A stretch of 64,000 bases of DNA from Nitrospiraceae bacterium (GTDB lineage Bacteria; Nitrospirota; Nitrospiria; Nitrospirales; Nitrospiraceae): NCBI GenBank assembly GCA_050246315.1, contig JBFWWG010000009.1, positions 1 to 64,000 of the forward strand. The letters are read 5' to 3'. The translations under genes were made by a program, and so were the position numbers. This document shows positions 11,379-52,608 of this stretch, piece after piece; position 1 is the stretch's first letter, and each line of letters starts with the position of its first letter. The notes beneath the pieces are model-generated. The model was given only the letters and a program-made list of their open reading frames with translations, was not told the DNA's origin and ran no database searches.

Positions 11379-13928
11379 TTGCAAACGGAGGTCTCTATGC
11401 CCAGGATCAAGAAGAGCGGCATGGCGAAAACAGGCGCAACCGGAACCGTGGCGCCGTCCCTGTCGTCCCCGCCGACCGCGCAGGATTTTGAGAAGCTCGG
11501 CGTCTTCTATCTGGGAAGGCCCTACGATCTGGCCGCCAAGAAGGCTCAGGCCGGATGGCTCCTCTACGATTCTAAGGACCTCGTCACCCACGCCGTCTGC
11601 GTCGGCATGACCGGAAGCGGCAAAACCGGCCTCTGCCTCGCGTTGCTCGAAGAGGCGGCGATCGACGGGATTCCGGCCCTCATCATCGATCCGAAGGGCG
11701 ATCTCGGCAACCTGCTCCTGACCTTCCCCCAGCTTCGGGGAGAGGACTTTGCTCCCTGGATCAACGAAGACGAGGCACGTCAAAAAGGGCTTTCGCCGAC
11801 CGACTATGCAGCCAAACAGGCGGAGATTTGGAAGAACGGATTGGCGCAGTGGGGACAGGATGGCCAACGGATTGTCCGGTTACGGGAGTCGGCGGAGTTT
11901 GCGATCTACACGCCCGGCAGCAATGCCGGCCTGCCGGTCTCGATCCTCAAGTCGTTTGCGGCACCGGATGCGGGTCTTCGCGCGGATGCCGAATTCCTCC
12001 GAGAACGCATCGGCACCACCGCCACCAGCATCCTGGGATTGCTGGGCATCGAGGCCGATCCCATCAAGAGCCGCGAGCACATCTTGCTGTCCACTATTTT
12101 CGATGTGGCCTGGCGGGACGGACAGAATCTGGACCTTGCGGCCTTGATTCAGCAGATCCAGACACCGCCGGTCTCGAAAGTCGGCGTGATGGATCTGGAA
12201 TCGTTCTATCCCTCCAAGGAGCGCTTCGCGCTGGCCATGCAACTGAACAATTTGCTGGCGGCGCCCGGCTTTGCTTCCTGGCTGGAAGGAGAGGCGCTGG
12301 ACATGCAGTCACTCCTGTATACGCCGGAGGGCAAACCGCGAATGGCCATCATGTCGGTCGCGCACTTGAGCGAGGCCGAGCGGATGTTCTTCGTATCGCT
12401 CCTCCTGAATCAAGCGCTCGGCTGGGTCCGAGCCCAGTCCGGCACGACGACCTTGCGTGCCCTGATCTATATGGACGAGATTTTCGGGTACTTCCCGCCG
12501 GTGGCCAATCCTCCATCCAAAGGTCCTTTGCTGACGCTGCTGAAACAGGCCAGAGCCTTCGGTGTCGGCGTGGTCTTGGCGACCCAGAACCCCGTGGATC
12601 TGGATTACAAGGGACTGGCCAATACCGGAACCTGGTTCATCGGTCGGCTCCAGACCGAGCGGGACAAGGCGCGGGTGCTCGAAGGGCTCGAAGGAGCGTC
12701 GGCAGGCACGGGTAAGCGCTTCGATCGCAAACGGATGGAAGAAACGTTGGCCGGGTTGGGCAATCGGATCTTTCTCATGAATAACGTGCATGAGGATGAA
12801 CCGGTGATCTTCGAGACCCGTTGGGCCCTGTCCTATCTCCGCGGGCCGTTGACGCGGGCCCAGATCAAATCCTTGATGGACCCGGTGAGAGGTCAAGCGT
12901 CAAACGTCAAGCGTCAAACGGGTGGAAAGGAGGAATCCGGTTCGTTACGAATGACGAATGACGATTTGCGAATGACGGCTTCGCGCCCCGTTCTCCCTCC
13001 CGAAGTCCCCCAATATTTCGTCCCGGTGCGCGGGGCTCAACCGGAAAGCAGCAGCCTCGTCTATCGCCCGATGGTCCTGGGGCTCTCGCAGATCCGATTC
13101 GTCGATGCCAGGAAGGGACTCGAATCCGTCCGCGACGAGGCTCATGTGATGCCTGTCGATCGCGCCGCAACGATGATCGACTGGGAGCGGAGTTCGGTCG
13201 TCGCTGTCGTACGAGACGACCTTGAACAAGCGCCGAACTCCGAGGCGCGATTTGAGGAGGTCGCTTCAGAGGCAGGCCGTGCGAAAAGTTACGACGGATG
13301 GAAGAAAACCTATGCGAATTGGCTGTTCCGAACCGCCAAGCTCGATCTCTATCGGAGCCCGAGCCTGTCCGAAGTCTCCCAACCGCATGAGACCGAACGA
13401 GACTTCAGGGTGCGGCTGCAACAGGTTGCGCGCGAGCGCCGTGATGCGGCCGTTGAGAAGCTGCGCCAAAAATATGCATCGAAGATCGCGACCCTGCAAG
13501 ATCGCATCCGGCGGGCGGAGCAGGCCGTGGAGCGGGAAAAGGAACAGGCGAAGCAGACGGGGCTCCAAACGGCCCTGTCGGTCGGCGCGACGATACTCGG
13601 TGCGTTCATGGGCCGAAAGACCATCTCCTCGACCACGATCGGGAAAGCAACCACGGCCCTCGGCAAGGCCGGCCGGACGATGAAGGACATGAAAGATGTC
13701 GGGATGGCGCAGGACAACGTGGCGGCGCTGCACCAGCACTTGGCCGACCTTGAGGCCCAGTTCAAGGTCGAAGCGGACAACCTGGCCGGCGTCGATCCGC
13801 AGACGGAACCGCTCGAATCCGTTCCTCTCCGTCCCACCAAGACCAATATCTCCGTGAAACTGGTGGCGCTGGCCTGGCTGCCGTACTGGCGAGATTCGGC
13901 GGAGAACCTCCTCCCAGCCTATCAATAG
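11379..13928 (+). CDS. HerA/FtsK-like P-loop ATPase with C-terminal coiled coil (start may be ATG 11397)
   Basis: Walker A GMTGSGKT, IIDPKGD, Walker B IYMDE, LATQNPVDLDYK. Confidence 0.85.
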   Translation: MQTEVSMPRIKKSGMAKTGATGTVAPSLSSPPTAQDFEKLGVFYLGRPYDLAAKKAQAGWLLYDSKDLVTHAVCVGMTGSGKTGLCLALLEEAAIDGIPALIIDPKGDLGNLLLTFPQLRGEDFAPWINEDEARQKGLSPTDYAAKQAEIWKNGLAQWGQDGQRIVRLRESAEFAIYTPGSNAGLPVSILKSFAAPDAGLRADAEFLRERIGTTATSILGLLGIEADPIKSREHILLSTIFDVAWRDGQNLDLAALIQQIQTPPVSKVGVMDLESFYPSKERFALAMQLNNLLAAPGFASWLEGEALDMQSLLYTPEGKPRMAIMSVAHLSEAERMFFVSLLLNQALGWVRAQSGTTTLRALIYMDEIFGYFPPVANPPSKGPLLTLLKQARAFGVGVVLATQNPVDLDYKGLANTGTWFIGRLQTERDKARVLEGLEGASAGTGKRFDRKRMEETLAGLGNRIFLMNNVHEDEPVIFETRWALSYLRGPLTRAQIKSLMDPVRGQASNVKRQTGGKEESGSLRMTNDDLRMTASRPVLPPEVPQYFVPVRGAQPESSSLVYRPMVLGLSQIRFVDARKGLESVRDEAHVMPVDRAATMIDWERSSVVAVVRDDLEQAPNSEARFEEVASEAGRAKSYDGWKKTYANWLFRTAKLDLYRSPSLSEVSQPHETERDFRVRLQQVARERRDAAVEKLRQKYASKIATLQDRIRRAEQAVEREKEQAKQTGLQTALSVGATILGAFMGRKTISSTTIGKATTALGKAGRTMKDMKDVGMAQDNVAALHQHLADLEAQFKVEADNLAGVDPQTEPLESVPLRPTKTNISVKLVALAWLPYWRDSAENLLPAYQ
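12892..12977. repeat. Inverted heptamer tandem repeat inside the ATPase CDS
   Basis: (GTCAARC)x4, spacer, then several TGACGAA-like units; encodes QASNVKRQ...RMTNDDLRMT. Confidence 0.75.
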
Positions 13929-13973: not shown

Positions 13974-14109
13974 CTGGCAGGGTGAGAGAAAACACTCCGT
14001 TCATCCTTCGAGAGCCTCAGGACGAACGGAGCAGTCATTGAATATCTGGTGTTTTCCGATCGCGCTGAGCCTGTCGAAGCACACAAATCGAATTTTTCGC
14101 AGCCTGCTA
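13974..14109. mobile_element. MITE-like repeat family 2, copy 1
   Basis: Closely similar to 30179-30316; internal TCCTTCGAGAGCCTCAGGA and GCTGAGCCTGTCGAAGC palindromes; right end TTTTTCGCAGCCTGCTA includes the stop of the convergent gene. Confidence 0.8.
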
Positions 14110-25718: not shown

Positions 25719-26705
25719 ATGAAACGAATCAAGATCGGCGTCATGGTCGCCATGGTGCTCGGGTTATCGTTGCTGCCGGGGGCTCAGGTCTCGGCGGAAC
25801 CGTCAAGCGGACATCTGGACTGGGAGTCGTGGGCGCTCGACTGGGAGGTCAACGGTACGACGGGGTTGGCACTGCGCCACGTTGCCTATCGGGGCGATCT
25901 CATTCTCGGCAAGGCCAGCATGCCGGTCCTGCGCGTCAAATACGACAAGGAGCGTGTCTGGTGGAATCCGTTTTCCTGGTTTGGATCGCGCGAGGAAACC
26001 GGCCGCTGCGGACCATTCCAGGACCGGCTCTCCTGGACCAACAGCATTCCGATTGCCGCTTGCGACGGCAAGAAGGTCTGTGCGAGGGAACATACCATCG
26101 ATGGCCTCAAGTGGCTGGAGCTGGGGATCTATGCGCGGATCGGAGAGTACCATATCTATCAAGCCTGGTACGTCTCGGCGGACGGCGAGATTCATCCGAT
26201 TGTGCAGAGCCGAGGCCTGTCCTGCGTCACCAATCATGTGCACCATCCCTATTGGCGTCTCGATTTTGACGTGGCCGGCCGGGGGTTGGACCAGGTCTTT
26301 GTTCGCAATGACGGGGCGCCGGATGAAGGCTGGGGGCCGGGCTGGCACAAGTATACGAATGAACTGAACACGTTCAAACAGGGTGCGACCAACCGTGTCT
26401 GGTTCGTGCGGGATTATCCGACCGGAAAGGGCGTCTGGGTGATGCCCGGATACGGCTATGAACCGATCAAGGATGACGGCGCGCGAGATGAGTTTTCGGA
26501 TCGGGATGTATCGATCAGGCGGGCCCGTGCGGACGAAGATCTACCCTGGATGTTTGGTGCAAGGGGAGATCTCGCTTATGATCAGGATCACGAAGGGGTT
26601 CAGGAGCAGGATATCCTGTTCTGGTATGTGGCGCATCTCGCCCATCCGGCGGCAATGGGTCCCACCGCCTGGCTGGCTGTCGGGCCTGTCATCCGCGTGC
26701 AGTAA
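25719..26705 (+). CDS. Exported copper-amine-oxidase-like catalytic (D4) domain protein
   Basis: Signal peptide; WESW...GLALRHVAY...KASMP; GEYHIYQAWY..DGEI; HVHHPYWRLDFDV; DILFWYVAHLAH. Confidence 0.75.
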   Translation: MKRIKIGVMVAMVLGLSLLPGAQVSAEPSSGHLDWESWALDWEVNGTTGLALRHVAYRGDLILGKASMPVLRVKYDKERVWWNPFSWFGSREETGRCGPFQDRLSWTNSIPIAACDGKKVCAREHTIDGLKWLELGIYARIGEYHIYQAWYVSADGEIHPIVQSRGLSCVTNHVHHPYWRLDFDVAGRGLDQVFVRNDGAPDEGWGPGWHKYTNELNTFKQGATNRVWFVRDYPTGKGVWVMPGYGYEPIKDDGARDEFSDRDVSIRRARADEDLPWMFGARGDLAYDQDHEGVQEQDILFWYVAHLAHPAAMGPTAWLAVGPVIRVQ

Positions 26706-26808
26706 TCACTTGTCCCTGCGGCGAAAAAGTACCGGAGGGGGCAAATGTCGCGTGATCTCTCCTCTTGGCGTCATAGCTCCCGTTCGATTAACGACTTGAA
26801 GTGCCAGG

Positions 26809-26930
26809 AGGACGTTCAAAAAGGCGGTCCAGCGAGGCCGCAGTGAGCGAAGGGTCGAGGCGCACTTGTCTCGGTGCGTTGAGGCCCTGAGCGATGCGAG
26901 AACAAAGCTGGCGGGTTTTTTCAACATCCT
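26809..26930. mobile_element. MITE-like repeat family 1, copy 2 (reverse orientation)
   Basis: AGGACGTTCAAAAAG ... TTTTTTCAACATCCT; reverse complement aligns with 142-267; lies between convergent genes beside CTAG 26933-26936. Confidence 0.8.
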
Positions 26931-26932
26931 CC

Positions 26933-27457
26933 CTAGGCGGCGGCCACCTTCAGCCCCACTTTCAGGGCTACCTTCGTCAGCGCGATCGCACCGTCCAGTA
27001 TGGCCGCTTTGCGTTTCTGCGAGCCTGTGTCCAGGACGGCCCGCTCCAGCAGTCGGTTGTATTCGTCCACATCGGCTTGGCTGAACGAGATCACCCTCTG
27101 CACCGTCGCATCGTAGGTGTTTGCCATGACCTGGTAGAGCTTAGCCCGGTGGGCGTGAAAGAGGCCCACGAGTTCGGGCTCGTCGCTGAACAGCATGATC
27201 TTCTTCCCATTCTCCCCGATTTCTTGCAGGATCTTCTCCTGGGTCGCTCGGATGTCCTCGTCCTTTTCGACGGCAAACTTGGTCTGACCCAAGTTCTTGA
27301 TCAGATCTTCCGTATCGCTGCGGGATACTTCCAGGCGGTTAGCGAGCTTCTGTAGCTCGCTGAAGGAACCCTCGCCGGCCTCCGCCACGTCCTTGATCAG
27401 TTTGTCGTTGCCTCTCATAAAGTTGACCACACCTTCGAGCGAGCGGGTGATGCTCAT
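26933..27457 (-). CDS. Hypothetical alpha-helical protein
   Basis: ORF 26933-27463; ATG 27457 preferred because GGAGG lies 7 nt upstream; no signal peptide, no recognised motif. Confidence 0.75.
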   Translation of the reverse strand: MSITRSLEGVVNFMRGNDKLIKDVAEAGEGSFSELQKLANRLEVSRSDTEDLIKNLGQTKFAVEKDEDIRATQEKILQEIGENGKKIMLFSDEPELVGLFHAHRAKLYQVMANTYDATVQRVISFSQADVDEYNRLLERAVLDTGSQKRKAAILDGAIALTKVALKVGLKVAAA

Positions 27458-27471
27458 GGCCATCCCTCCAT

Positions 27472-27785
27472 ACCAACCTTCGGTTGAACCGGCGGCTCAT
27501 CGGGCGCAGCCCTTCTTGATTAACGCCGCCGGAGACACACCGCCAGTGATTGAGTTGTTTCTGCTTTCACCAACCTTCGGTTGAACCGGCTCATCGGGCG
27601 CAGCCCTTCTTGATTAACGCCGCCGGAGACACACCGCCAGTGATTGAGTTGTTTCTGCTTTCACCAACCTTCGGTTGAACCGGCTCATCGGGCGAAGCCC
27701 CTCTATACCAAGCTACGCTTGTAGCGCGGGCTCTTCAGACCCAGCCTTCTTCATCGACGCCCGCGGAGAACTCCCTCCAGTGATT
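27472..27785 (-). repeat. Array 1 of structured ~78-nt repeat units (units 27707-27785, 27663-27706 half, 27569-27645, 27472-27551)
   Basis: Near-exact 94-97 nt tandem duplication plus a diverged unit; minus-strand consensus AATCACTGG...stem-hairpin-stem...GGTTCAA[CCGAAGG/GCGTAGC]TTGGT. Confidence 0.92.
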
Positions 27786-27795
27786 CGTCTTGTCC

Positions 27796-28497
27796 TCAAT
27801 CTTTCTTCATCCGCTCCAGCAGTTCGACTAAATCCATCGTCAGGGAGCGGGTGGATTCGAGTGTCCGTCCGCGCAGGAATGAGAAGTTCAGAGCTTCGTC
27901 CAGGGCGTCGTTCACGCTGCGGGAGGTTTGCAGCACCCTGGCGATCTGGTCGGACGAACCGGGCGCCTGTTCCGCCAACGCGGCGACGAACTGTGGGTCC
28001 ACGGAGGCGAACACCGATTGCTCGGCATAGCGACGGAGCTGTTGGTGCAGGGTCCCCAAGGATTTCCAGGAGTCGCCGAGCCTGGCCGCCACTTGCTGCA
28101 GGGCGCAAAAGTCCTCGTGGAACTGGTCGTTCACCCGCTTCTGCAGCCCCTCGTACTGAGCGAGATAGAGCGCGCCGAGCAGGTAGGCGGCCGAATGGGC
28201 GTCTTGCCCCCGCTTCTGCTCGATATTCCGATAGGAGGAAAACACGACATGGTGAACGGCTTCCACCTTCTGGAGTTCCTTTCCCGCAGCGTTGAGCTCC
28301 TCGAGCGCTTTCTGGAGATATCCAATCCGCTCGTCCGTCTGCTTCTCGAAGAGATTGATGTTGGTTTGAGCTCGATCGATCGTCGAGCCTTCTTTGTGGA
28401 TCAGCTCACGGACGGCTCCGCTGCGAATGGCCGAGCAGCCGGTGGCCAGGGCCAAGAGCGAAAGAGCCATGATGAGGGTGACGGATCGTGTCGGCAT
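27796..28497 (-). CDS. Hypothetical helical lipoprotein
   Basis: MPTRSVTLIMALSLLALATGC lipobox; AAGGGAG SD; coiled-coil-like composition. Confidence 0.8.
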   Translation of the reverse strand: MPTRSVTLIMALSLLALATGCSAIRSGAVRELIHKEGSTIDRAQTNINLFEKQTDERIGYLQKALEELNAAGKELQKVEAVHHVVFSSYRNIEQKRGQDAHSAAYLLGALYLAQYEGLQKRVNDQFHEDFCALQQVAARLGDSWKSLGTLHQQLRRYAEQSVFASVDPQFVAALAEQAPGSSDQIARVLQTSRSVNDALDEALNFSFLRGRTLESTRSLTMDLVELLERMKKD

Positions 28498-28526
28498 GGC
28501 AGTCTCCCTTCTCGTGATCGGCCTAC

Positions 28527-29168
28527 TCAACGGGCCGCCTTGACGGCTTCAGCCAGTTGTCTGATGTCGTCCGACTTCACGGTGACATCGATGTCCAAGT
28601 ATTCCTTTACCGTGGCGTTGATGCGGCGGAGCGCCGCGATGTTGGTCCGGTAATCGTCATAGGCACCGGTGTCGAGGGGGCGCACTAGGGCCTGGTAACT
28701 CTTTTCGACCGAGGCGTCGATCAAGGCAACCAAGCCGGGTAAGGCCTGCACAAGACCGCTCATCGTGCCCGTGCCTTTCGTGAAGACGGGCTGATTGTTC
28801 GGACCGGACCGTGCCGGCAACTCGGCCAATCGTATGTCGTTCACAAGCTTGACGACCTCAGGTCCCAACTCCTGTGCAGCCGTTTCCGCCCGGAGCTGCT
28901 GCTTCGCGGCCGCATCGGATGGAAAAGGATCGGTCGTGGCCCACTTCAATGCCAGGCTGAGTTTCAGTCGGGTTTCGATCAGTTGATGCCAGGATGCGAA
29001 CCGGTGGTTTACGTTCTCCAGCAGCTCCCGGTACTGCTCCATGAGCCGCGCGTTCTCTTGGTAGGCCTGGTCCTTTGCGACCAAGGCCTGTTTCACTTCG
29101 GGGGGTGTCGCGCATCCGGAGAGCAGGCCCAACAGAAGGCCGGCTGTGAATAGACGAGTGGGTGTCAT
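28527..29168 (-). CDS. Hypothetical helical lipoprotein
   Basis: MTPTRLFTAGLLLGLLSGC lipobox; GGAGG SD 6 nt upstream of ATG 29168. Confidence 0.8.
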   Translation of the reverse strand: MTPTRLFTAGLLLGLLSGCATPPEVKQALVAKDQAYQENARLMEQYRELLENVNHRFASWHQLIETRLKLSLALKWATTDPFPSDAAAKQQLRAETAAQELGPEVVKLVNDIRLAELPARSGPNNQPVFTKGTGTMSGLVQALPGLVALIDASVEKSYQALVRPLDTGAYDDYRTNIAALRRINATVKEYLDIDVTVKSDDIRQLAEAVKAAR

Positions 29169-29181
29169 AGTTGTCCTCCAT

Positions 29182-29502
29182 ACCAACCTTCGGTTGAACC
29201 GGCGGCTCATCGGGCGAAGCCCTTCTTCATTGTTGCCGCCGGGGACACACCGCCAGTGATTGAGTTGTTTCTGCTTTAACCAACCTTCGGTTGAACCGGC
29301 GGCTCATCGGGCGAAGTCCCTCTATACCAAGCTACGCTTGAACCGCGGGCTCTTCAGGCGCAGCCTTCTTCATCGACGCCCGCGGAGAAATTCCTCCAGT
29401 GATTCGCTGCTCTTCGTTTCTTGAAACCAAGCTACGCTTGAACCGCGCGCTCTTCATCGGTGTATCGAATCTGACGCGCGCGGAGAAACGCCACCAGTGA
29501 TT
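29182..29502 (-). repeat. Array 2 of structured ~78-nt repeat units (units 29426-29502, 29326-29404, 29279-29325 half, 29182-29261)
   Basis: Same consensus as array 1; three sequence variants with compensatory stem changes. Confidence 0.92.
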
Positions 29503-29905
29503 CTTCTCCCCCACTTCTCCGAATCGAGCCGCGACCGCCGGAATATCCCGCCTTGCGGTAGAGTCCTTCGGTCAAGATCAGCAAGGCCCGTGCCAATAGG
29601 GTTATGGATGCCAGACTGGAAAAGCCGGAGGAGGCGGCCTGTTCAAATGGCCTGATGACGGCGAACGATGACATAAGCACCTCTCGGCACTCGTTCACTG
29701 TATCCGATTGGATACCGACCGTATCTTTCTGTACCGGACAACATGAGATTCGGCACGTGGTCGCCGGCATGTGGGAGAGGCGATGTTATGCCGGAGGACA
29801 GGAAGCGTCAATCAAAAGTATTGGGAGAGGGGTCAGGAGAAACAGAGGACTGGGTGCTGGTCGATGGAATTGTCGCTCAAAGCAGGGAAACAAGGGGGAA
29901 GGCCG

Positions 29906-30180
29906 AGCCCGCATTATTCATGACGGTTCGTCGCGAAATCGTGAAGTCACCAAGCGAGATGGGCAAGCATGGCCGCGAGGGATCGAAGCGTACTTGAAAT
30001 AGTACGTCGAGGGACTAAGCGGCGAGCACACCCGCCATACCGCACTTCGTGTGAGCAGGTGGCCCGTCGGGCCGAGCCCCTCTTCATTGTCACCGCCGGT
30101 GAAATCGCTTCGACTGGTCAGGCCCTGTCGCAGCGGCGATTTCGCGATTGCAGCTGAGGCGTTCATGAATAATGCGGCCT
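29906..30180. mobile_element. MITE-like element family 3 (275 bp)
   Basis: 18-bp terminal inverted repeats AGCCCGCATTATTCATGA / TCATGAATAATGCGGCCT (1 mismatch); inner IR TCGCGAAATCG (29931-29941) / CGATTTCGCGA (30137-30147); a solo end-like sequence at 17281-17300. Confidence 0.7.
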
Positions 30181-30316
30181 AGTAGGATGCGGAAAAACTC
30201 TCCGTTCATCCTTCGAGGGCCTCAGGACGAACGGAGCAGGCATTGAATATACTGGTATTTTCCGATCATGCTGAGCCTGTCGAAGCACAAAATCGAGTTT
30301 TTCCGCAGCCTGCTAG
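30179..30316. mobile_element. MITE-like repeat family 2, copy 2
   Basis: CTAG-TAGGATGCGGAAAAACTC ... GAGTTTTTCCGCAGCCTG-CTAG; CTAG on both sides. Confidence 0.85.
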
Positions 30317-30318
30317 TG

Positions 30319-32127
30319 TCAGGAACCTTTCGTTGCTTGCCTGAGCGCCTCCACGGTCTTGGAGGCAAGTCCCGCCTCGCGTAATTCCTCGTCCGTGGCC
30401 TGTGTCACCGCGTCGGCGCTGCCGAACTGCCCCAGCAGCCGGTTGCGGGTGATCTCGCCGATGCCGATGACCTGATCAAGCTTCGACGAGGTCAAGGTCT
30501 TGCTGCGGAGTGTCCGGTGGTACTTGACGGCGAAGCGATGGGCCTCATCCCTGATGCGCTGGACCAAGTGCGTGGCGGGCGAGGTCGGGTGGAGGATGAT
30601 CGGATTCTTCCGTCCTGGGAGAAAGATGCGCTCCTCCTTGTCGCCGCGCGCCTTGGCCAAACCGACGATCGGTAGGTGAGACTGGCCGACCTGTCTGAGC
30701 CCGTCAATGGCGGCTGCCAGTTGCGCGAGGCCGCCGTCGATCAGGATCAAGTCCGGTCTCGACAGATCTTCCGCCTGGCTGTACCGGCGCATCACGACCT
30801 CCTGAATGCTGGCAAAGTCGTTCGCGCCCTCGACCGTTTTGATCCGGAACTTGCGGTAGTCCGACTTTTTCATCGCGCCCTGCTCCCAGACCACCATCGA
30901 ACCGACGGACTGGTTGCCGAGGAGGTTGGAAATATCGAACCCTTCGATCCGGTTCGGGATGGAATTCAGCCGGAGCAATCGCTTCAGCTCCGCGGTGGCC
31001 TGCCGGTTGGTCTCCTCATCTCGTAGATGATCGATCAATGCCGCCAGCGCGTTCTCCTCCGCCAATTGGATAAGCTGGTGTTTCGTGCCTCGCTCCGGCG
31101 CCACGATGCAGACGGTGTCCCCTCGCTTCTCCGAGAGCCAGGTCTGAAGCAGCACAGCTTCGGGCAGGGAACAAGGGATCAGCAGTTCCTTCGGAGGTTG
31201 GCCGTCCTTGTTATAGAACTGCTCGATGGTCGAGACCACCAGCTCTTCATCGGCCGTGTCGGCACCGGTCGGCCAATAGAAGTCCTTCCGGCCGATCAAC
31301 AGGCCTCCACGTACGAAGAGCAGTTGCAGGTCCACCGCGGTACCGCGGCGCGCGAATCCGATGACATCCTGATCCACGGATGCGATTTGGGTGATCCGTT
31401 GTTTCTCCAACGTCCGTTGGATCTTGAACAGGCGGTCGCGGAGCCTGGCCGCTTCCTCGAATGCCTCCCACTCGGCGGCCGTCTCCATCTGTGCGCGGAG
31501 ATCATCCAACAGTTCGTGATCCCGGCCCTCGAGAAATTGACGAACCTGCTTTACGATCTTGTGATAGTCATCCTTGGACTGGTTGCCCGTGCAAGGCGCC
31601 ATGCAGCGTTTGATCTCGAACTCGATGCAGGCGCGCTCGGCGGTCCCGTCGATGTCGATCTTGCAGGTCGCCAGCGGAAAGGCCCGTTTGATGATCTTCA
31701 GGGTTTCGCGAAGCGCTCCGGCCGGGGTGTAGGGACCGTAGTAGAGCGCGCCGTCTTTTTGGACGCGTCGGACGATCGAAAAGCGCGGGAAGTCCTCTTT
31801 GATCGGCAGTCGGAGATAGGGATACTGTTTGTCGTCGCGCAGCACGACGTTGAAGCGGGGGCGATGTCGCTTGATCAGATTGCTTTCGAGGATCAGTGCT
31901 TCCAGCTCCGACCGGGTGACGATGGTTTCGACCTCCGCCACCTGATCGATCAGCAGGACGGTCTTCGGGTTGTGGTCGGCGGCGCGTTGGAAATAGGACC
32001 TGACACGATGGGCCAGGACGGCGGCCTTGCCGATGTAGAGGATGTCCCCCTTGGCATTCTTGAACAGATAGACGCCGGGCTGAGCCGGCAGGTGGTCAAG
32101 TTTGGATTGCAGGACATCGGTCGTCAT
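30319..32127 (-). CDS. uvrC: Excinuclease ABC subunit C
   Basis: PGVYLF...YIGKA GIY-YIG domain, UVR domain, RIEGFDISN, LIDGG, RIRDEAHRFA, HhH. Confidence 0.97.
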   Translation of the reverse strand: MTTDVLQSKLDHLPAQPGVYLFKNAKGDILYIGKAAVLAHRVRSYFQRAADHNPKTVLLIDQVAEVETIVTRSELEALILESNLIKRHRPRFNVVLRDDKQYPYLRLPIKEDFPRFSIVRRVQKDGALYYGPYTPAGALRETLKIIKRAFPLATCKIDIDGTAERACIEFEIKRCMAPCTGNQSKDDYHKIVKQVRQFLEGRDHELLDDLRAQMETAAEWEAFEEAARLRDRLFKIQRTLEKQRITQIASVDQDVIGFARRGTAVDLQLLFVRGGLLIGRKDFYWPTGADTADEELVVSTIEQFYNKDGQPPKELLIPCSLPEAVLLQTWLSEKRGDTVCIVAPERGTKHQLIQLAEENALAALIDHLRDEETNRQATAELKRLLRLNSIPNRIEGFDISNLLGNQSVGSMVVWEQGAMKKSDYRKFRIKTVEGANDFASIQEVVMRRYSQAEDLSRPDLILIDGGLAQLAAAIDGLRQVGQSHLPIVGLAKARGDKEERIFLPGRKNPIILHPTSPATHLVQRIRDEAHRFAVKYHRTLRSKTLTSSKLDQVIGIGEITRNRLLGQFGSADAVTQATDEELREAGLASKTVEALRQATKGS

Positions 32128-32128
32128 C

Positions 32129-32215
32129 TGTCAACCGTCATTGGTCAACCGTAAGAATAACAGGAACAGGGCGTCGATTGCTTCGGTTGACGTCTGACGA
32201 ATGACGGTTGACGAC
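32129..32215. repeat. Inverted heptamer tandem repeat (GTCA-N3)n ... (TGAC-N3)n
   Basis: GTCAACC GTCATTG GTCAACC ... TGACGTC TGACGAA TGACGGT TGACGAC. Confidence 0.75.
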
Positions 32216-33102: not shown

Positions 33103-33250
33103 GTCAAATAGCGTCAGTCGCCAAACGTCAACCGGGATGAAGAACCTACTTTGTCGATCTACGCAAGGTCAACGGGGAAGATAAGGTGTGGTGCCTCAAT
33201 GCGGGCATTGCGGGGAGTGCACTTGACGAGTGACGGATGACGCGTGACGA
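33103..33250. repeat. Inverted heptamer tandem repeat
   Basis: GTCAGTC GCCAAAC GTCAACC ... TGACGAG TGACGGA TGACGCG TGACGAG. Confidence 0.7.
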
Positions 33251-33669: not shown

Positions 33670-33856
33670 GTCACTAGTCAACGGTCATTGGTCATTCGCA
33701 TGGCAGAGGGTCGTCGGTCATGAGTCATCGCTGAAGAGTCCTCCTCCCCAACCAATGGGCGTTCACCAGTAACCAATGACATCCTCTGCTCCATTGACCA
33801 ATGACCAGTGACGAATGACCTGTTGTTGCCACCAATGACGGTTGACGCCTGACGAG
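33670..33856. repeat. Compound inverted heptamer tandem repeats
   Basis: GTCACTA GTCAACG GTCATTG GTCATTC ... TGACCAA TGACCAG TGACGAA TGACC ... TGACGGT TGACGCC TGACGAG. Confidence 0.8.
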
Positions 33857-36404: not shown

Positions 36405-36469
36405 CGGGGTGTCGAAAAAACCTATCAGTCTGTACTCCCGAGTGGATGGTCGTTGCCTGCCAAATTGCC

Positions 36470-36550
36470 GTCAAGCGTCATGCGTCAAGCGTGTGGGAAG
36501 AGAAAGGTCCGTGGAAGATGTTGCGCATCTTCCCGATTGACGAGTGACGG
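36470..36550. repeat. Inverted heptamer tandem repeat between convergent genes
   Basis: GTCAAGC GTCATGC GTCAAGC ... TGACGAG TGACGG. Confidence 0.65.
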
Positions 36551-36569
36551 ATCACGATCGGCCTTGTTG

Positions 36570-45845: not shown

Positions 45846-48512
45846 TTACTCCTTTACGACCTCCACGGTCGCGCAATGGAACGACGGCACCTTTGTGACG
45901 GGATCGAGGGTACAGTCCAACAGTCCGATCATTTCTTGAGCAAAATGATCCGGGAACCAAGCCGTTCCTTGCGGGATACGCTCCGACAGGTGCACGGTGG
46001 TTCTCGCCTCCCCCCGCTCGTTTCGCACGAGTACCCGGTCACCTTCGGCAAGCGATCGACCGACCGCATCGGTCGGATTGAGCGACAGGGCGCCGGCCGG
46101 TTGAACTTGCAGCAGACCTTTGGAACGAGTCGAGAGTTTCCCGGAATGGAACAAGCTTTGTCCCAGCAGCAGCCGTAGATGCGGCTTGGGCGGTGCGGGC
46201 GATACTGCCGGTGTGTAACGGCTTGACAGATTGGACCGGAATCCCTCCTTCAGGTATTGCTCGACGACGCCGGGGACCGGCTTCGGCGGAATCGGAGTCG
46301 GGCCCAGCAGTCCGTGTCCTGGGATCACCGTGCGGAGTTCCTTGGAGATCTCCTGCGCGTCGTCATATTCGAGCGGATAACCCATCAACGTCGCGATGCC
46401 GCACAGGATTTCCCAGTCGGGCCTACTGTCGCCGACAGGGTTGATGGCTCGGCGGACCTTCTGCACATAGCCTTCCGTATTGGTGAACGATCCGTTCTTC
46501 TCGGCATAGGAGCAGGCGGGAAGCACCACATGGGCCAGCTTGGCCGTTTCGGTCAGGAACAGTTCCTGACAAACCAGCAGATCCAGCCCTTCCAGGGCTT
46601 CGCGGACCTTGACGCTTGGGGGGAGCGTGCCGACAGGATTCTCCCCCACGATAAACATCACTTTGACCGCTCCTTGGCGGGCCTGATCGAGCAACTCCAT
46701 CATCGTGAACGCCTGTCCCTGGGTCAGGTCATCCTTCCAATGGTTGGTCACCGAATCGCGGGCGTTGCGATCTTGAACGGGGAGACTGCCGGGCAAGTAG
46801 CCGGCCACGGCGCCCACGTCGATCGCTCCCTGTTCGTTGTTCTCTTCTGCTAGCGGCGCGAGGCCGCACCCTGGCTGGTCATGCCGTCCGAGGAGAATCA
46901 GCAGATCCAGCAAGGCGAGCGAGGCCGTATGGCCGGAAGGAGAACGGAGGAGGGCTTGTCCGACAAGGATCACGGTCCGCTTGCCCCTGGCGAGCGCCGC
47001 CGCCATGTCTTGCATCGCCTTGGCTCCGGTGCCTGAGGCCGTTTCGAGTGCCGGCCACGTCAGGTTCGCCGTCAATTCGGCGATGGCACGCACATAATCG
47101 GGAGCCTTCTGAGCCAGATTTGCATCGACAGCTCCCTGTTCGATGACCGCCTTGATCAGCCCGAGGATCACGGCTTGGAACTGATCCGGACGCGCGGTGA
47201 TATGAAGGTGGGCCAAGTTGGTAATGTTGCTGATCTTCTCGACGGCCGGTTGGACGGGTTCCACGGTCAACAAGGTGGCGCGACGCTTCTTCACCGCCTC
47301 CTTCACGCGCAACCCGGTGACCGGGTTGGTCTCGGTGATGTTCGTGCCGACAAGCAGCAGTATGTCCGCGGCGACCACGTCTTCCATCGCAACCGTCCAC
47401 CGAGTGACGCCGAGCACCAATCTCAGTGCACGAATCGCGTTGATGTAGCCGTACCGGACGCTACTGTCGAGCTTGTTGGTGCCGATGGCCAGACGCATGA
47501 ATTTTTGGAAAAGATAGAGATCTTCGTTGGTGCAGCGCGTGCCGATCAGGCCGGCGAAAGCATCCGCCCCATGCGAGAGCTTGAGTCGGACCGACGTTTC
47601 CGCCACATATCCCAACGCTTCCTCCCAGGTGGCCGGGACCAGCCGCCCCTCCTGCCGGATCAACGGGGTGGTGAGCCGGTCCGGGTGGGTGGTGACATGG
47701 TAGCCGAAGAACCCGCGTGCGCAGAGATCGCCGTTGTTGCGGCCGGCGCCGTAGGCGGAATTCACTTCGATCGGCTCGTTATTTTTGGCTTGGATCGTGA
47801 TTTGGCAGCCATCGCCGCAGAAGGTGCAGATCGTATCGGCTCGCTTCAGCATCCAAGGGCGGTATTCGTACATGGAGAGTCGGCTCGTGATGGCACCGAC
47901 CGGGCAGATCTGGACGCAGCCACCGCAAAATTCGCAATCGAGCTGATGGGAGGTGAAGTGCTTGATTTCCGTCATCGTGCCGCGCCCGCTGGGGGCCAGG
48001 GCCTTCACGTCCATCACCTCATCGCAGTACCGAACACACCGGAGGCACTGAACGCAGCGGTTCATCTGGGTTTCAATGAGCGGGCTGAAATAGTCTTTCT
48101 GGAAGAGACGCTTGACCTCGATGAACCGGCTGGTCGTGGGGGTGTATTCGTGCGAAAAGTCCTGGAGGTCGCACCGACCGCCCTGGTCGCAGACGGGACA
48201 GTCGAGCGGATGGTTCGCGAGGATGAATTCCAACACGGATTTGTGGGCATTGTTGACGACGGTCGTGGCGGTCCGGACCGTCATGCCCTCGGTCACCGGC
48301 GTGCTGCACGAGGTCTGGAGTTTCGGCATTTTCTCGATCTCGACCAGGCACATCCGGCAATTGGCGTCCGGCTTCAGCTTGGGGTGATAGCAAAAATGCG
48401 GAATCATCACCCCGACACGACGCGCGGCTTCGATCACCAAGGTGCCCTTGGGTACCGTGACGGGGATGCCGTCGATCGTCAGGTGAACCAGCTCGGTTGC
48501 CGTATTGGTCAT
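45846..48512 (-). CDS. nuoG: NADH-quinone oxidoreductase subunit G
   Basis: [40 protein letters not shown]; molybdopterin-oxidoreductase-like C-terminus. Confidence 0.95.
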
Positions 48513-48610
48513 GGGTCAATAGTCATCGGTCAATGGGTAGAGAGCGTTCGCAACGGGCAACGGCTGCATGAATGCATCGTCGGCTCGAATGACGAATGAC
48601 CATTGACGAT
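48508..48610. repeat. Inverted heptamer tandem repeat between nuoF and nuoG
   Basis: GTCATGG GTCAATA GTCATCG GTCAATG ... TGACGAA TGACCAT TGACGAT. Confidence 0.75.
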
Positions 48611-49942: not shown

Positions 49943-50026
49943 GTCAAACGTCAACGGTCATTCGTCAATCGGAGGCGAGGACGACTTCCCACCATGATCT
50001 TCCGAATGACAAGTGACGATTGACGG
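49943..50026. repeat. Inverted heptamer tandem repeat between nuoE and nuoF
   Basis: GTCAAAC GTCAACG GTCATTC GTCAATC ... TGACAAG TGACGAT TGACG. Confidence 0.75.
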
Positions 50027-52521: not shown

Positions 52522-52533
52522 CGTCGTCCATGC

Positions 52534-52608
52534 GTCAACCGTCATGGGTCAAGCGTCATGGGAATCCACGATCCCCTCGATTGACGAATGACCATTGACG
52601 AATGACCA
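52534..52608. repeat. Inverted heptamer tandem repeat between nuoB and nuoCD
   Basis: GTCAACC GTCATGG GTCAAGC GTCATGG ... TGACGAA TGACCAT TGACGAA TGACCAC. Confidence 0.8.

Follow-up and report, generated by a model that had tools for sequence, protein, structure and literature searches.

The two arrays of structured repeats at positions 27472-27785 and 29182-29502 of the window (the whole 64,000-nt stretch of Nitrospiraceae DNA that was analysed) belong to a family that numbers 147 units, spread over 91 loci of this genome, as detected by iterated nhmmer searches. At nearly all non-degenerate loci the 3' GGT of the unit was followed, in fixed orientation, by one base and then TGG. On balance, the arrays are probably local copies of a Nitrospiraceae-wide interspersed repeat, non-autonomous and target-specific, that has multiplied locally in tandem. 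A mobile or recombinogenic DNA element would insert in fixed orientation, its GGT end one base before TGG, and this TGG would lie either within ATGGAGG before a start codon or opposite the terminal CCA of a gene for tRNA, tmRNA or tRNA-Sec. The arrays described here would be passengers in the 5' leader and intercistronic spacer of a three-gene cluster. One of two readings offered in an earlier note on this DNA was a hairpin-forming mobile or recombination repeat linked to this cluster; a mobile repeat fits the data much better, whereas the link to the cluster does not hold across 91 loci.

The two arrays and the structure of the unit

Re-reading of the sequence reproduced the arrangement given in the earlier note: two minus-strand arrays, each made up of three full units plus a half unit, both ending GGTTGGT-AT-GGAGG before genes with ATG codons at 29168 and 27457. 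Full units measured 77-80 nt in both arrays, as had been reported. The features were:

26933..27457, minus strand: gene 3, 174 aa
27465..27471, minus strand: ATGGAGG, Shine-Dalgarno (SD) sequence of gene 3 (ATG 27457), immediately 3' of the last array B unit
27472..27785, minus strand: array B, full units at 27785-27707, 27645-27569 and 27551-27472
27706-27663, minus strand: half unit of array B
27796..28497, minus strand: gene 2, 233 aa, predicted lipoprotein
28527..29168, minus strand: gene 1, 213 aa, predicted lipoprotein (LLSGC motif)
29175..29181, minus strand: ATGGAGG, SD sequence of gene 1 (ATG 29168), immediately 3' of the last array A unit
29182..29502, minus strand: array A, full units at 29502-29426, 29404-29326 and 29261-29182, scored by HMM and covariance model R1
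about 29326-29279, minus strand: 3' half unit of array A, from the sequence as read and the HMM/covariance model R1
29907..30179, minus strand: MITE "c", about 273 nt, inverted ends GCCGCATTATTCATGAAC... / ...GTCATGAATAATGCGGGC
30039..30105, minus strand: ninth unit of the repeat family, embedded in MITE "c" with its terminal inverted repeats

Array B occupied the spacer between genes 2 and 3, from 10 nt past the gene 2 stop codon to the SD sequence, and its last two units (B3/B4) were a period-94 tandem duplicate, 96% identical (TRF array at 27472-27704). The two arrays were linked by repeat search at 93-94% identity and were 91% alike across 217 nt. Unit periods were 94-100 nt and not multiples of 3; an ATG within the unit was in frame with gene 1 (227-aa ORF) but not with gene 3 (53-aa ORF). 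The leader sequence AATCACTGG, previously presented as part of the full unit, proved to be a local variant (23 occurrences genome-wide vs. 23 expected by chance). No Pfam or NCBIfam family was matched by genes 1, 2 or 3, and atlas matches to the three proteins were hypothetical proteins and lipoproteins only; orthologues of gene 2 were present in 3/3 congeners (88-96% identity).

The unit consisted of a purine-rich leader and a core of about 70 nt (about 95 nt in all), the core being formed by an 8-bp G+C-rich stem around a purine-rich loop, a 5-bp hairpin capped by a GNA triloop, and GGT. The claim that pairing survives sequence change was borne out in 45 units of this genome, in which structure pairs were counted against shuffled and slid controls: 91.2% of the alignment cells paired, vs. 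78.0 +/- 0.8 in shuffles (0/500 shuffles reached 91.2%) and 22-42% with slid partners, and 10 of the 17 pairs had changes on both sides. RNAalifold independently recovered the long stem and the terminal hairpin. Unpaired positions (TCTCC, GA, GAG and GGT) were also nearly invariant. Among the 84 full-length units the terminal triloop was GAA in 56, AAA in 10 and GTA in 7, and it was closed by C-G in 81; the C-GNA-G triloop hairpin is of a very stable single-stranded DNA type. Stem mismatches were 42 G-T (G-U) vs. 55 A-C overall, so neither strand was favoured. By class the G-U/A-C counts were 13/8 in SD arrays, 14/17 in tRNA arrays and 15/30 in others, a difference that was not significant. 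A repeat family with strand-neutral mismatches can yield clear covariation, which is a caution for the discovery of RNA motifs.

These data bear directly on the other reading of the earlier note, a cis-regulatory or processed ncRNA of the three-gene cluster. A dedicated tandem riboswitch, ribozyme or kink-turn RNA controlling the cluster would account for the docking of units on the SD sequences of two of its three genes and for the covarying structure. As the earlier note had found no known riboswitch or ribozyme, so Rfam 15 gave no match inside the arrays (E up to 10, positions 26500-30500) and none at gathering scores in the whole window; such an RNA, if real, would therefore be new. It is nevertheless a most improbable explanation, contradicted by the 91 loci, by the unrelated genes and opposite-orientation tRNA genes that they adjoin, by the strand-neutral mismatches, by SD accessibility equal to that of controls (below), and by the number of units at the cluster itself, which is anywhere from 2 to 5 depending on the congener. 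Nor was the kink-turn signature conserved: in a sequence-level test, the arrangement stem-NNN-GA ... GA-stem was found in 5/84 full-length units, the commonest 5' strands being GACAA (17) and GTCAA (15).

At the one locus looked at, RNA-library contigs (which carry neither transcript ends nor strand, and in which DNA carry-over is possible) extended from genes into arrays, stopped within or at the borders of arrays, and broke at 29906, beside MITE "c". A scan for promoters and terminators was at chance level. The arrays are probably transcribed together with the cluster genes, and by analogy may have a REP/BIME-like effect on mRNA stability or translation. Masking of the SD sequence by the conserved UCUCC was considered and rejected: the mean predicted unpaired probability was 0.38 in 22 docked genes and 0.36 in 80 controls (p = 0.56).

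The junction rule and the spread of the unit

Fifty-eight of the 91 loci were single units; arrays held 2 to 6 units, all head to tail, with mixed strands in 0 of 33 multi-unit arrays. By a crude gene caller made for this analysis, 87 loci lay outside genes. The earlier note had held that many copies in random orientation to genes would argue for a plain repeat; the copies were indeed many, but their orientation followed a strict junction rule.

At 24 SD-type loci the order was GGT-ATGGAGG-N(1-8)-start codon on the same strand. The genes behind them were unrelated, and included GYD, LemA, TolC-like, MscS-like, isoamylase, OmpA, PepSY, UDP-glucose dehydrogenase, FlgC, SPFH, response regulator and L25 genes. 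At 17 tRNA-type loci the unit abutted, on the opposite strand, the 3' CCA of a gene for tRNA, tmRNA or tRNA-Sec; the gap was exactly 1 nt in 13 of these, and in the other 4 the HMM match ended early. The remaining 32 of 49 tRNA-type genes were without a unit. One further unit lay 2 nt upstream of the GGAGGGG 5' end of a tRNA-Ser gene, 39 loci lay within two MITE families, and units also preceded a similar motif, ATRGAGG, inside other units. Of 160 intergenic ATGGAGG sites, 21 were occupied, whereas AAGGAGG, ACGGAGG, AGGGAGG, CTGGAGG and TTGGAGG had 0 occupied sites and GTGGAGG had 1. All 21 occupied sites had a called start codon no more than 15 nt away, whereas just 53 of the 695 called genes whose SD sequence contains GGAGG had the ATGGAGG form; the motif alone is an insufficient explanation.

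Covariance model R1 detected the unit in 19 of 24 other Nitrospiraceae genomes and in 0 of 16 genomes from three sister families of the same order; an exact 29-nt pattern was found in Nitrospira/Nitrospiraceae records only (28 stretches). Unit counts were high in this genus, in G007 (69), in G016 and in the complete genome G004 (22). The junction rule GGT-N-TGG was kept in four other genera, where flanks were read for 29 hits with loci, out of 68: 18 adjoined tRNA/tmRNA-like DNA on the opposite strand, 9 were SD-type and 2 MITE-type. Aragorn called 12 of the 18 tRNA/tmRNA-like neighbours, with a gap of 1 nt in 12/12. The tmRNA gene was occupied in four genera, tRNA-Cys, -Met, -Pro, -Ala and -Arg were each occupied in several, and an MscS-like gene was docked in two. 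A full-text literature search, in the texts that it reached, returned no published description of such a TGG/CCA placement rule.

Units were 80-90% identical between genera whose L25 proteins were 61-75% identical. Within-genome identity (0.66) was not above between-genome identity (0.60-0.65), so that there was no sign of recent genome-specific bursts, and within-genome homogenisation of units was not seen. The cross-genus identity, as a sequence pattern, is also consistent with selection for a host function. A host-selected functional module at tRNA/tmRNA 3' ends and before ribosome-binding sites is thus a possible explanation, though one that we hold to be less than probable. Such a module would function at the RNA level in either orientation, in transcript-end protection or as a processing signal, or as DNA bound by a conserved host protein, with arrays as a by-product of slippage. 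Consistent with it are the constancy of the unit between genera in which the DNA of the prs-ctc spacer is unalignable, its presence in most genomes of the family, the occupation of the same tRNA/tmRNA genes in several genera, the nearly invariant unpaired positions, the contigs that run from genes into arrays, and the absence of any transposase, reverse transcriptase or CsrA that tracks the unit. The mismatches by class also lean as transcription would predict in SD and tRNA arrays, although not significantly. It leaves unexplained, however, the base-exact junctions, as well as nesting at one fixed internal position, carriage by MITEs, and rapid copy-number change and presence/absence among congeners. 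Furthermore, tmRNA-adjacent units of different genera were not mutual nearest relatives, docked SD sequences were predicted to be as accessible as those of controls, and most tRNA-type genes lacked a unit.

Turnover, nesting and candidate enzymes

The three-gene cluster carried arrays at both positions in 3/3 congeners, with 2 to 5 units per array across four congeners. Upstream of ctc (L25), units were present in G000, G002 and G003 only, among 29 loci examined, and their number among congeners was 0, 1, 1-2, 3 or more. Nineteen units were truncated on the 5' side, with starts confined to model positions 23-29, and 17 of these directly followed the GGT of another unit; only 4 were 3'-truncated. 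At C13:28429 the halves of a host unit flanked an inserted leader and unit, the junctions being TCA|...GGT|ATAGAGG, without duplication. The carriers "c" and "d" were classical MITEs, "c" accounting for 22 of the 91 loci. The unit itself had no terminal inverted repeats, its ends (purine-rich leader ... GCTTGGT) not being inverted copies, and no target-site duplication was visible at unit junctions.

Insertion with the GGT end before TGG would leave the target intact, and repeated insertion together with unequal recombination is therefore proposed to build the head-to-tail arrays, whose copy number would thereby shift fast between related genomes. Array growth would be polar; the gradient along arrays was weak, the target-proximal unit scoring best in 19 of 33 arrays, vs. 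13.5 expected (p = 0.035).

A clean empty site with alignable flanks was found at none of the tRNA-Thr(tgt), tRNA-Ser(gga) and ctc loci. At tRNA-Thr(tgt), the G001 unit was internally deleted and the G003 flank was unalignable. At tRNA-Ser(gga), G001 and G003 had a unique 122-nt sequence replacing the unit, yet retained GCTTGGT-A-TGG. At ctc, G001 had no unit and the spacer difference exceeded a simple insertion. The leader motif CTGGNGG was considered as a duplicate of the 3' flank TGGNSS and rejected, with a full match by eye in 1 of about 10 tRNA-adjacent units.

Several points were counted against the preferred reading: no enzyme, no clean empty site, no duplication and no strand bias, and also the cross-genus unit identity, the shared targets, the start-codon restriction and the weak polarity.

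The search for an enzyme covered Y1_Tnp, RVT_1 and CsrA co-occurrence, and none was found to go with the unit. The genome had 8 Y1_Tnp matches, 4 of them full length (about 310 aa), and units (E below 0.01) were absent from the 1.5 kb on either side of all 8. Y1_Tnp and unit presence/absence did not track across 41 genomes: G007 had 69 units and 0 Y1_Tnp, and G009, G011, G013, G019 and G020 had Y1_Tnp and, by model R1, 0 units. CsrA likewise did not track the repeat. By GC skew, replication-strand bias was absent in non-SD loci (36 leading vs. 28 lagging), and SD loci (19 leading vs. 8 lagging) were distributed like genes overall (2324 vs. 1237), following gene orientation. It is on these results that a REP/BIME-type element moved by a RAYT (a Y1 HUH transposase), or a palindrome element derived from IS200/IS605 and acting on single-stranded DNA, becomes improbable. 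Such an element would agree with a high-copy extragenic hairpin with a fixed motif on one side and neither inverted ends nor visible duplications, with a stable C-GNA-G triloop on one strand and with the Y1_Tnp genes of the genome, but not with the distance of units from those genes, the phyletic mismatch, the even distribution over the replication strands, or the finding of REPIN-like inverted pairs in 0/33 arrays.

The antisense order tRNA-CCA-N-(unit complement) would follow from spread through RNA, in which the CCA terminus of a mature tRNA or tmRNA would pair with UGG after the unit and prime a cDNA that becomes fixed at the tRNA gene. The 17 tRNA-type loci of this genome and the 12 called by aragorn elsewhere are ordered and oriented like a primer-extension product, a single variable base separates CCA from the unit, and 5'-truncated units outnumber 3'-truncated ones. 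We consider this route very improbable all the same, because G003, G004 and G007 gave no RVT_1 match, the latter two having 22 (in a complete genome) and 69 units, the sense orientation of SD-docked copies is left unexplained, the truncated units all begin at one position rather than being scattered, and we know of no route from a tRNA-primed cDNA into the chromosome.

More tentatively, and with a rather low probability, either of two further readings might apply. A conserved Nitrospiraceae machinery, distinct from Y1 transposases and from known reverse transcriptases, may add a module of about 95 nt, 80-90% constant across genera, by the TGG/CCA of RNA landmarks (tRNA/tmRNA/tRNA-Sec 3' ends and SD sites), in an addition that would be base-exact, polar and repeated. 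Alternatively, a two-orientation RNA element may cap mRNA leaders and tRNA trailers. If true, the one would be a new kind of targeting, the other a new class of RNA element.

Comparison with known systems

If the junction rule reflects an insertion mechanism, the enzyme of the interspersed repeat could also represent a novel type. In this genome at least 24 genes have leaders filled by arrays, which are thus likely to bear on expression. Since copy number varies between close relatives, the arrays could also serve as markers to distinguish Nitrospira strains in wastewater and soil.

REP/BIME sequences of enterobacteria and pseudomonads (with REPINs and RAYT) resemble the Nitrospira unit in being high-copy, extragenic, G+C-rich hairpins, often clustered, transcribed within operons, and with stems kept through compensatory changes. 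The Nitrospira unit differs in its lack of inverted pairs and of RAYT association, in its larger size, with two helices and a conserved loop, and in its strictly head-to-tail arrays. To our knowledge, a base-exact TGG junction is not a REP property.

MIRUs, the intergenic tandem repeats (VNTR loci) reportedly found in mycobacteria by Supply and colleagues in 1997, are likewise 40-100 bp tandem units in operon spacers, oriented with genes and abutting gene starts, with copy numbers that differ between close relatives. They are described, however, with small ORFs overlapping stop/start codons and not as hairpin modules, and the Nitrospira unit does not maintain a constant reading frame with respect to the adjoining gene. 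We know of no described link between MIRUs and tRNA 3' ends.

Palindrome-associated elements derived from IS200/IS605 share with the unit the absence of inverted ends and visible duplications, a subterminal hairpin, and a constant short motif on one flank in fixed orientation. IS200/IS605 elements are known for replication-strand bias, which the unit lacks; the unit is also uncorrelated with the Y1 transposase, and it occupies a much narrower set of sites than would be expected from a 3-4-nt motif.

Finally, elements that target tRNA genes, such as the integrases that use tRNA/tmRNA 3' ends and Ty3, which goes to Pol III start sites, are also placed precisely relative to many kinds of tRNA/tmRNA genes. 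An integrase is specific for a single tRNA sequence, whose 3' end it restores, whereas the Nitrospira unit, a non-coding insert of about 95 nt, uses 17 different tRNA-type genes plus SD sites. One base-exact rule joins two landmarks that share only TGG/CCA, across a family of nitrite-oxidising bacteria.

Arrays in the three-gene cluster

Both arrays lying on the minus strand of a three-gene cluster belong to an interspersed repeat (the "unit") that forms hairpins, is found Nitrospiraceae-wide and has a base-exact, oriented junction to TGG: the unit's 3' end GGT is followed by one base and then by TGG, belonging to a Shine-Dalgarno (SD) sequence on the same strand or to the complement of a tRNA CCA end.

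29907-30179, minus: type c MITE, about 273 nt, roughly 20-nt terminal inverted repeats, one unit inside
29502-29182, minus: array A, three full units and one 3' half unit, head to tail
29168-28527, minus: gene 1
28497-27796, minus: gene 2
27785-27472, minus: array B, three full units and one 3' half unit, head to tail
27457-26933, minus: gene 3

Minus-strand reading, TRF and a repeat search agreed with the coordinates and anatomy given for both arrays in the earlier note. Full units measured 77-80 nt in both; TRF detected a period-94 array at 27472-27704, and blocks of arrays A and B were 93-94% identical in the repeat search (91% over 217 nt by BLAST). The two units nearest gene 3 formed a 96% tandem duplicate which, with the 91% likeness of A and B, indicates that whole blocks duplicate and move. 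Both arrays terminated in ...GGTTGGT-AT-GGAGG followed by ATG (29168 for A, 27457 for B), and array B occupied the whole spacer between genes 2 and 3, from 10 nt past the stop codon up to the SD.

Of the proteins encoded by the cluster (26933-29168), two were predicted lipoproteins and the third measured 174 aa, and none of the three had a Pfam/NCBIfam family; gene 2 was present in 3 of 3 congeners and, as a query, had no match in G004 or G007, two other genomes of the family. Type I units (29210 and 27500, minus) carried an SD-like GAGGGG with an ATG 9 nt on (CGATGAGCC), in frame with gene 1 at 29210 (227-aa ORF, 28527-29210) and out of frame with gene 3 at 27500 (53-aa ORF, 27339-27500). RNA-library contigs broke at the edge of the type c MITE (29906). 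A second dispersed element, about 136 nt in length and containing a long hairpin (CTCCGTTCATCC...GGATGAACGGAG), was found at 30179-30315 and 13974-14109 (88% and 83% identity between copies), and similar sequence lay beside other arrays (C6:37565, C1:537270). Short clusters of 7-nt-period repeats (GTCAANC / ACGAATG types) were present in at least eight intergenic places of the window (12892-12971, 32125-32214, 33113-33250, 33672-33855, 36465-36557, 48508-48609, 49943-50026 and 52529-52608).

Genome-wide copies and their junctions

The unit had been linked to this cluster in the earlier note, a link dissolved by its distribution: array B gave 44 BLAST matches in its own genome (4.39 Mb, 30 contigs), and iterated nhmmer converged at 147 units in 91 loci (58 with one unit, 19 with two, 7 with three, 6 with four and one with six), with no mixed-strand arrays among the multi-unit ones. 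Eighty-seven loci lay outside genes called with a simple caller of our own making; orientation to the next downstream gene was the same in 50, opposite in 40 and cut by a contig end in 1. Many copies in random orientation had been proposed as the mark of a plain REP/MITE repeat; the many copies were there, but their flanks followed the oriented junction rule, ATGG nearly always succeeding GGT genome-wide.

Loci were classified from HMM matches, regular expressions and aragorn. Twenty-four read GGT-ATGGAGG and, 1-8 nt further along that strand, a start codon; 17 adjoined a tRNA-type gene at its 3' end, with the unit on the opposite strand; 39 were units carried by MITEs of two families, 22 by type c, whose terminal inverted repeats are clear, and 17 by type d; ten were partial or odd; and one held a unit in sense orientation, 2 nt ahead of tRNA-Ser(tga), whose 5' end reads GGAGGGG.

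The 19 referenced genes at SD-type loci included L25/Ctc and both docked window genes (no family), and 12 of the 16 scanned fell in unrelated families (GYD, LemA, TolC-like, MscS-type helix, isoamylase, OmpA, PepSY, UDP-glucose dehydrogenase, FlgC, Ig-like domain, SPFH and response regulator). Intergenic ATGGAGG sites were occupied in 21 of 160 cases; among the other NNGGAGG heptamers counted, five had no occupied site and GTGGAGG had one.

The tRNA-type neighbours (17 of 49 such genes in this genome) were 14 aragorn tRNAs, the tmRNA, a tRNA-Sec and a tRNA truncated at the edge of its contig; a gap of exactly one base separated unit and gene at 13 of 17, the HMM match stopping early at the other four. 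CCA was encoded by 45 of 46 aragorn tRNAs. T followed CCA in 32 of the 44 tRNAs with a readable flank, and a 95-nt "tRNA-Gln" without CCA (C2:78212-78306) may be a false call. The tRNA-Sec-like gene (C2, about 515380-515478; anticodon TCA, long extra arm), whose CCA end adjoins a three-unit array, was missed by aragorn at default settings; it and several tRNA fragments were identified by eye.

Structure and transcription

RNAalifold recovered the long stem and terminal hairpin from 45 aligned units, all from the window's genome. In the 17-pair structure 91.2% of pairing cells were paired, vs. 78.0 +/- 0.8% in shuffled alignments (0 of 500 reached 91.2%) and 22-42% with partners slid, and 10 of 17 pairs changed on both sides; the claim that stem pairing survives sequence change thus held. 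The terminal loop was GAA in 56 of 84 full-length units, with C-G closure in 81. The kink-turn signature, put forward as a feature of the unit, was seen in two window units but in only 5 of the 84, and was abandoned as such. The Rfam scan suggested in the earlier note matched no family in the arrays.

Stem mismatches (42 G-U vs. 55 A-C) favoured neither strand; by class they leaned weakly, not significantly, toward the prediction for transcription. Predicted SD accessibility of docked genes did not differ from controls. RNA-library contigs from four studies covered the array region: in X1, error-free contigs entered array B from both sides, out of gene 3 (27179-27491) and out of gene 2 (27692-28339); gene 1 was joined to array A by a contig with a single difference (28836-29204), and the first unit of array A was spanned with its upstream flank by a further contig (29394-29640). 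These contigs, which mark neither strand nor transcript ends and may stem from DNA carry-over, fit co-transcription of the arrays with the genes. Set beside 91 loci genome-wide, a regulatory RNA specific to this cluster was the least probable explanation considered.

Relatives, turnover and origin

An exact 29-nt pattern was found in Nitrospira/Nitrospiraceae records only (28 stretches). R1, the covariance model of the unit, matched 19 of 24 further genomes from the family (the unpublished G009 was among the five it did not match) and 0 of 16 from three sister families, with at least about 100 units in each of three congeners, 69 in G007, 30 in G016 and 22 in G004. In four other genera, flanks were read for the 29 of 68 matches listed with loci (E up to 1e-6): 18 adjoined tRNA-/tmRNA-like DNA on the other strand, 9 were SD-type and 2 MITE-type. 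Aragorn confirmed 12 of the 18, all 12 with a one-base gap; the gap base was A, C, G or T in these genera, so the unit ends at GGT.

Several features point to insertion and turnover. Nineteen units were 5'-truncated, every one starting at model positions 23-29 (ATRGAGGGGC...) and 17 directly after another unit's GGT; only 4 were 3'-truncated. At C13:28429 an inserted leader and unit were flanked by halves of one host unit with matching stem strands, so the junction rule extends to a ATGAAGAGG-like motif inside the unit. All three congeners had the three-gene cluster, with arrays of 2 to 5 units at both positions. Upstream of ctc (L25), the model search over 29 loci found units only in the window's genome and the congeners G002 and G003; the third congener, G001, read ...AAAGGAGAACGGTC-ATG, and ATGGAGG was absent from all 26 unit-less loci (G001 and 25 other genera). 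At tRNA-Ser(gga), the window's genome and G002 had a unit, and G001 (L163, C1:411806-411930) and G003 (C216:2027-2147) a unique 122-nt sequence, partly palindromic, A+T-rich and single-copy in both, beside which the last 7 nt GCTTGGT, gap base A and TGG were retained next to the tRNA. Neither a clean empty site nor a target duplication was found at the loci compared.

On balance we lean toward a non-autonomous element that would insert beside its target, leaving it undestroyed, and then be amplified in tandem. A RAYT/IS200-type element seems improbable, and spread as tRNA-primed cDNA still more so. Several results tell against a simple mobile element: none of the 8 Y1_Tnp matches in the window's genome had a unit nearby, Y1_Tnp, RVT_1 and CsrA did not co-occur with the repeat across genomes, and G007, with its 69 units, matched none of the three. 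Units showed no replication-strand bias. Their identity between genera was 80-90%, set against 61-75% for the L25 proteins of those genera; they were no more alike within a genome than between genomes, and they occupied the same tRNA-type genes in several genera. The lack of an enzyme partner, strand bias, empty site or duplication, together with the cross-genus likeness and shared targets, keeps a host function in play, and a host-selected module ranks second, as a possible but less probable account than the non-autonomous element.

A search of published full text found no description of the unit, nor was it described in a tabulated repeat count for N. moscoviensis (PMC12306157), a figure legend (PMC6006769) or MITE predictions on unrelated contigs (PMC12542641).

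The closest known kinds are REP/BIME and MIRU-type repeats, from which the unit family is set apart by its junction rule and its tRNA/SD duality.
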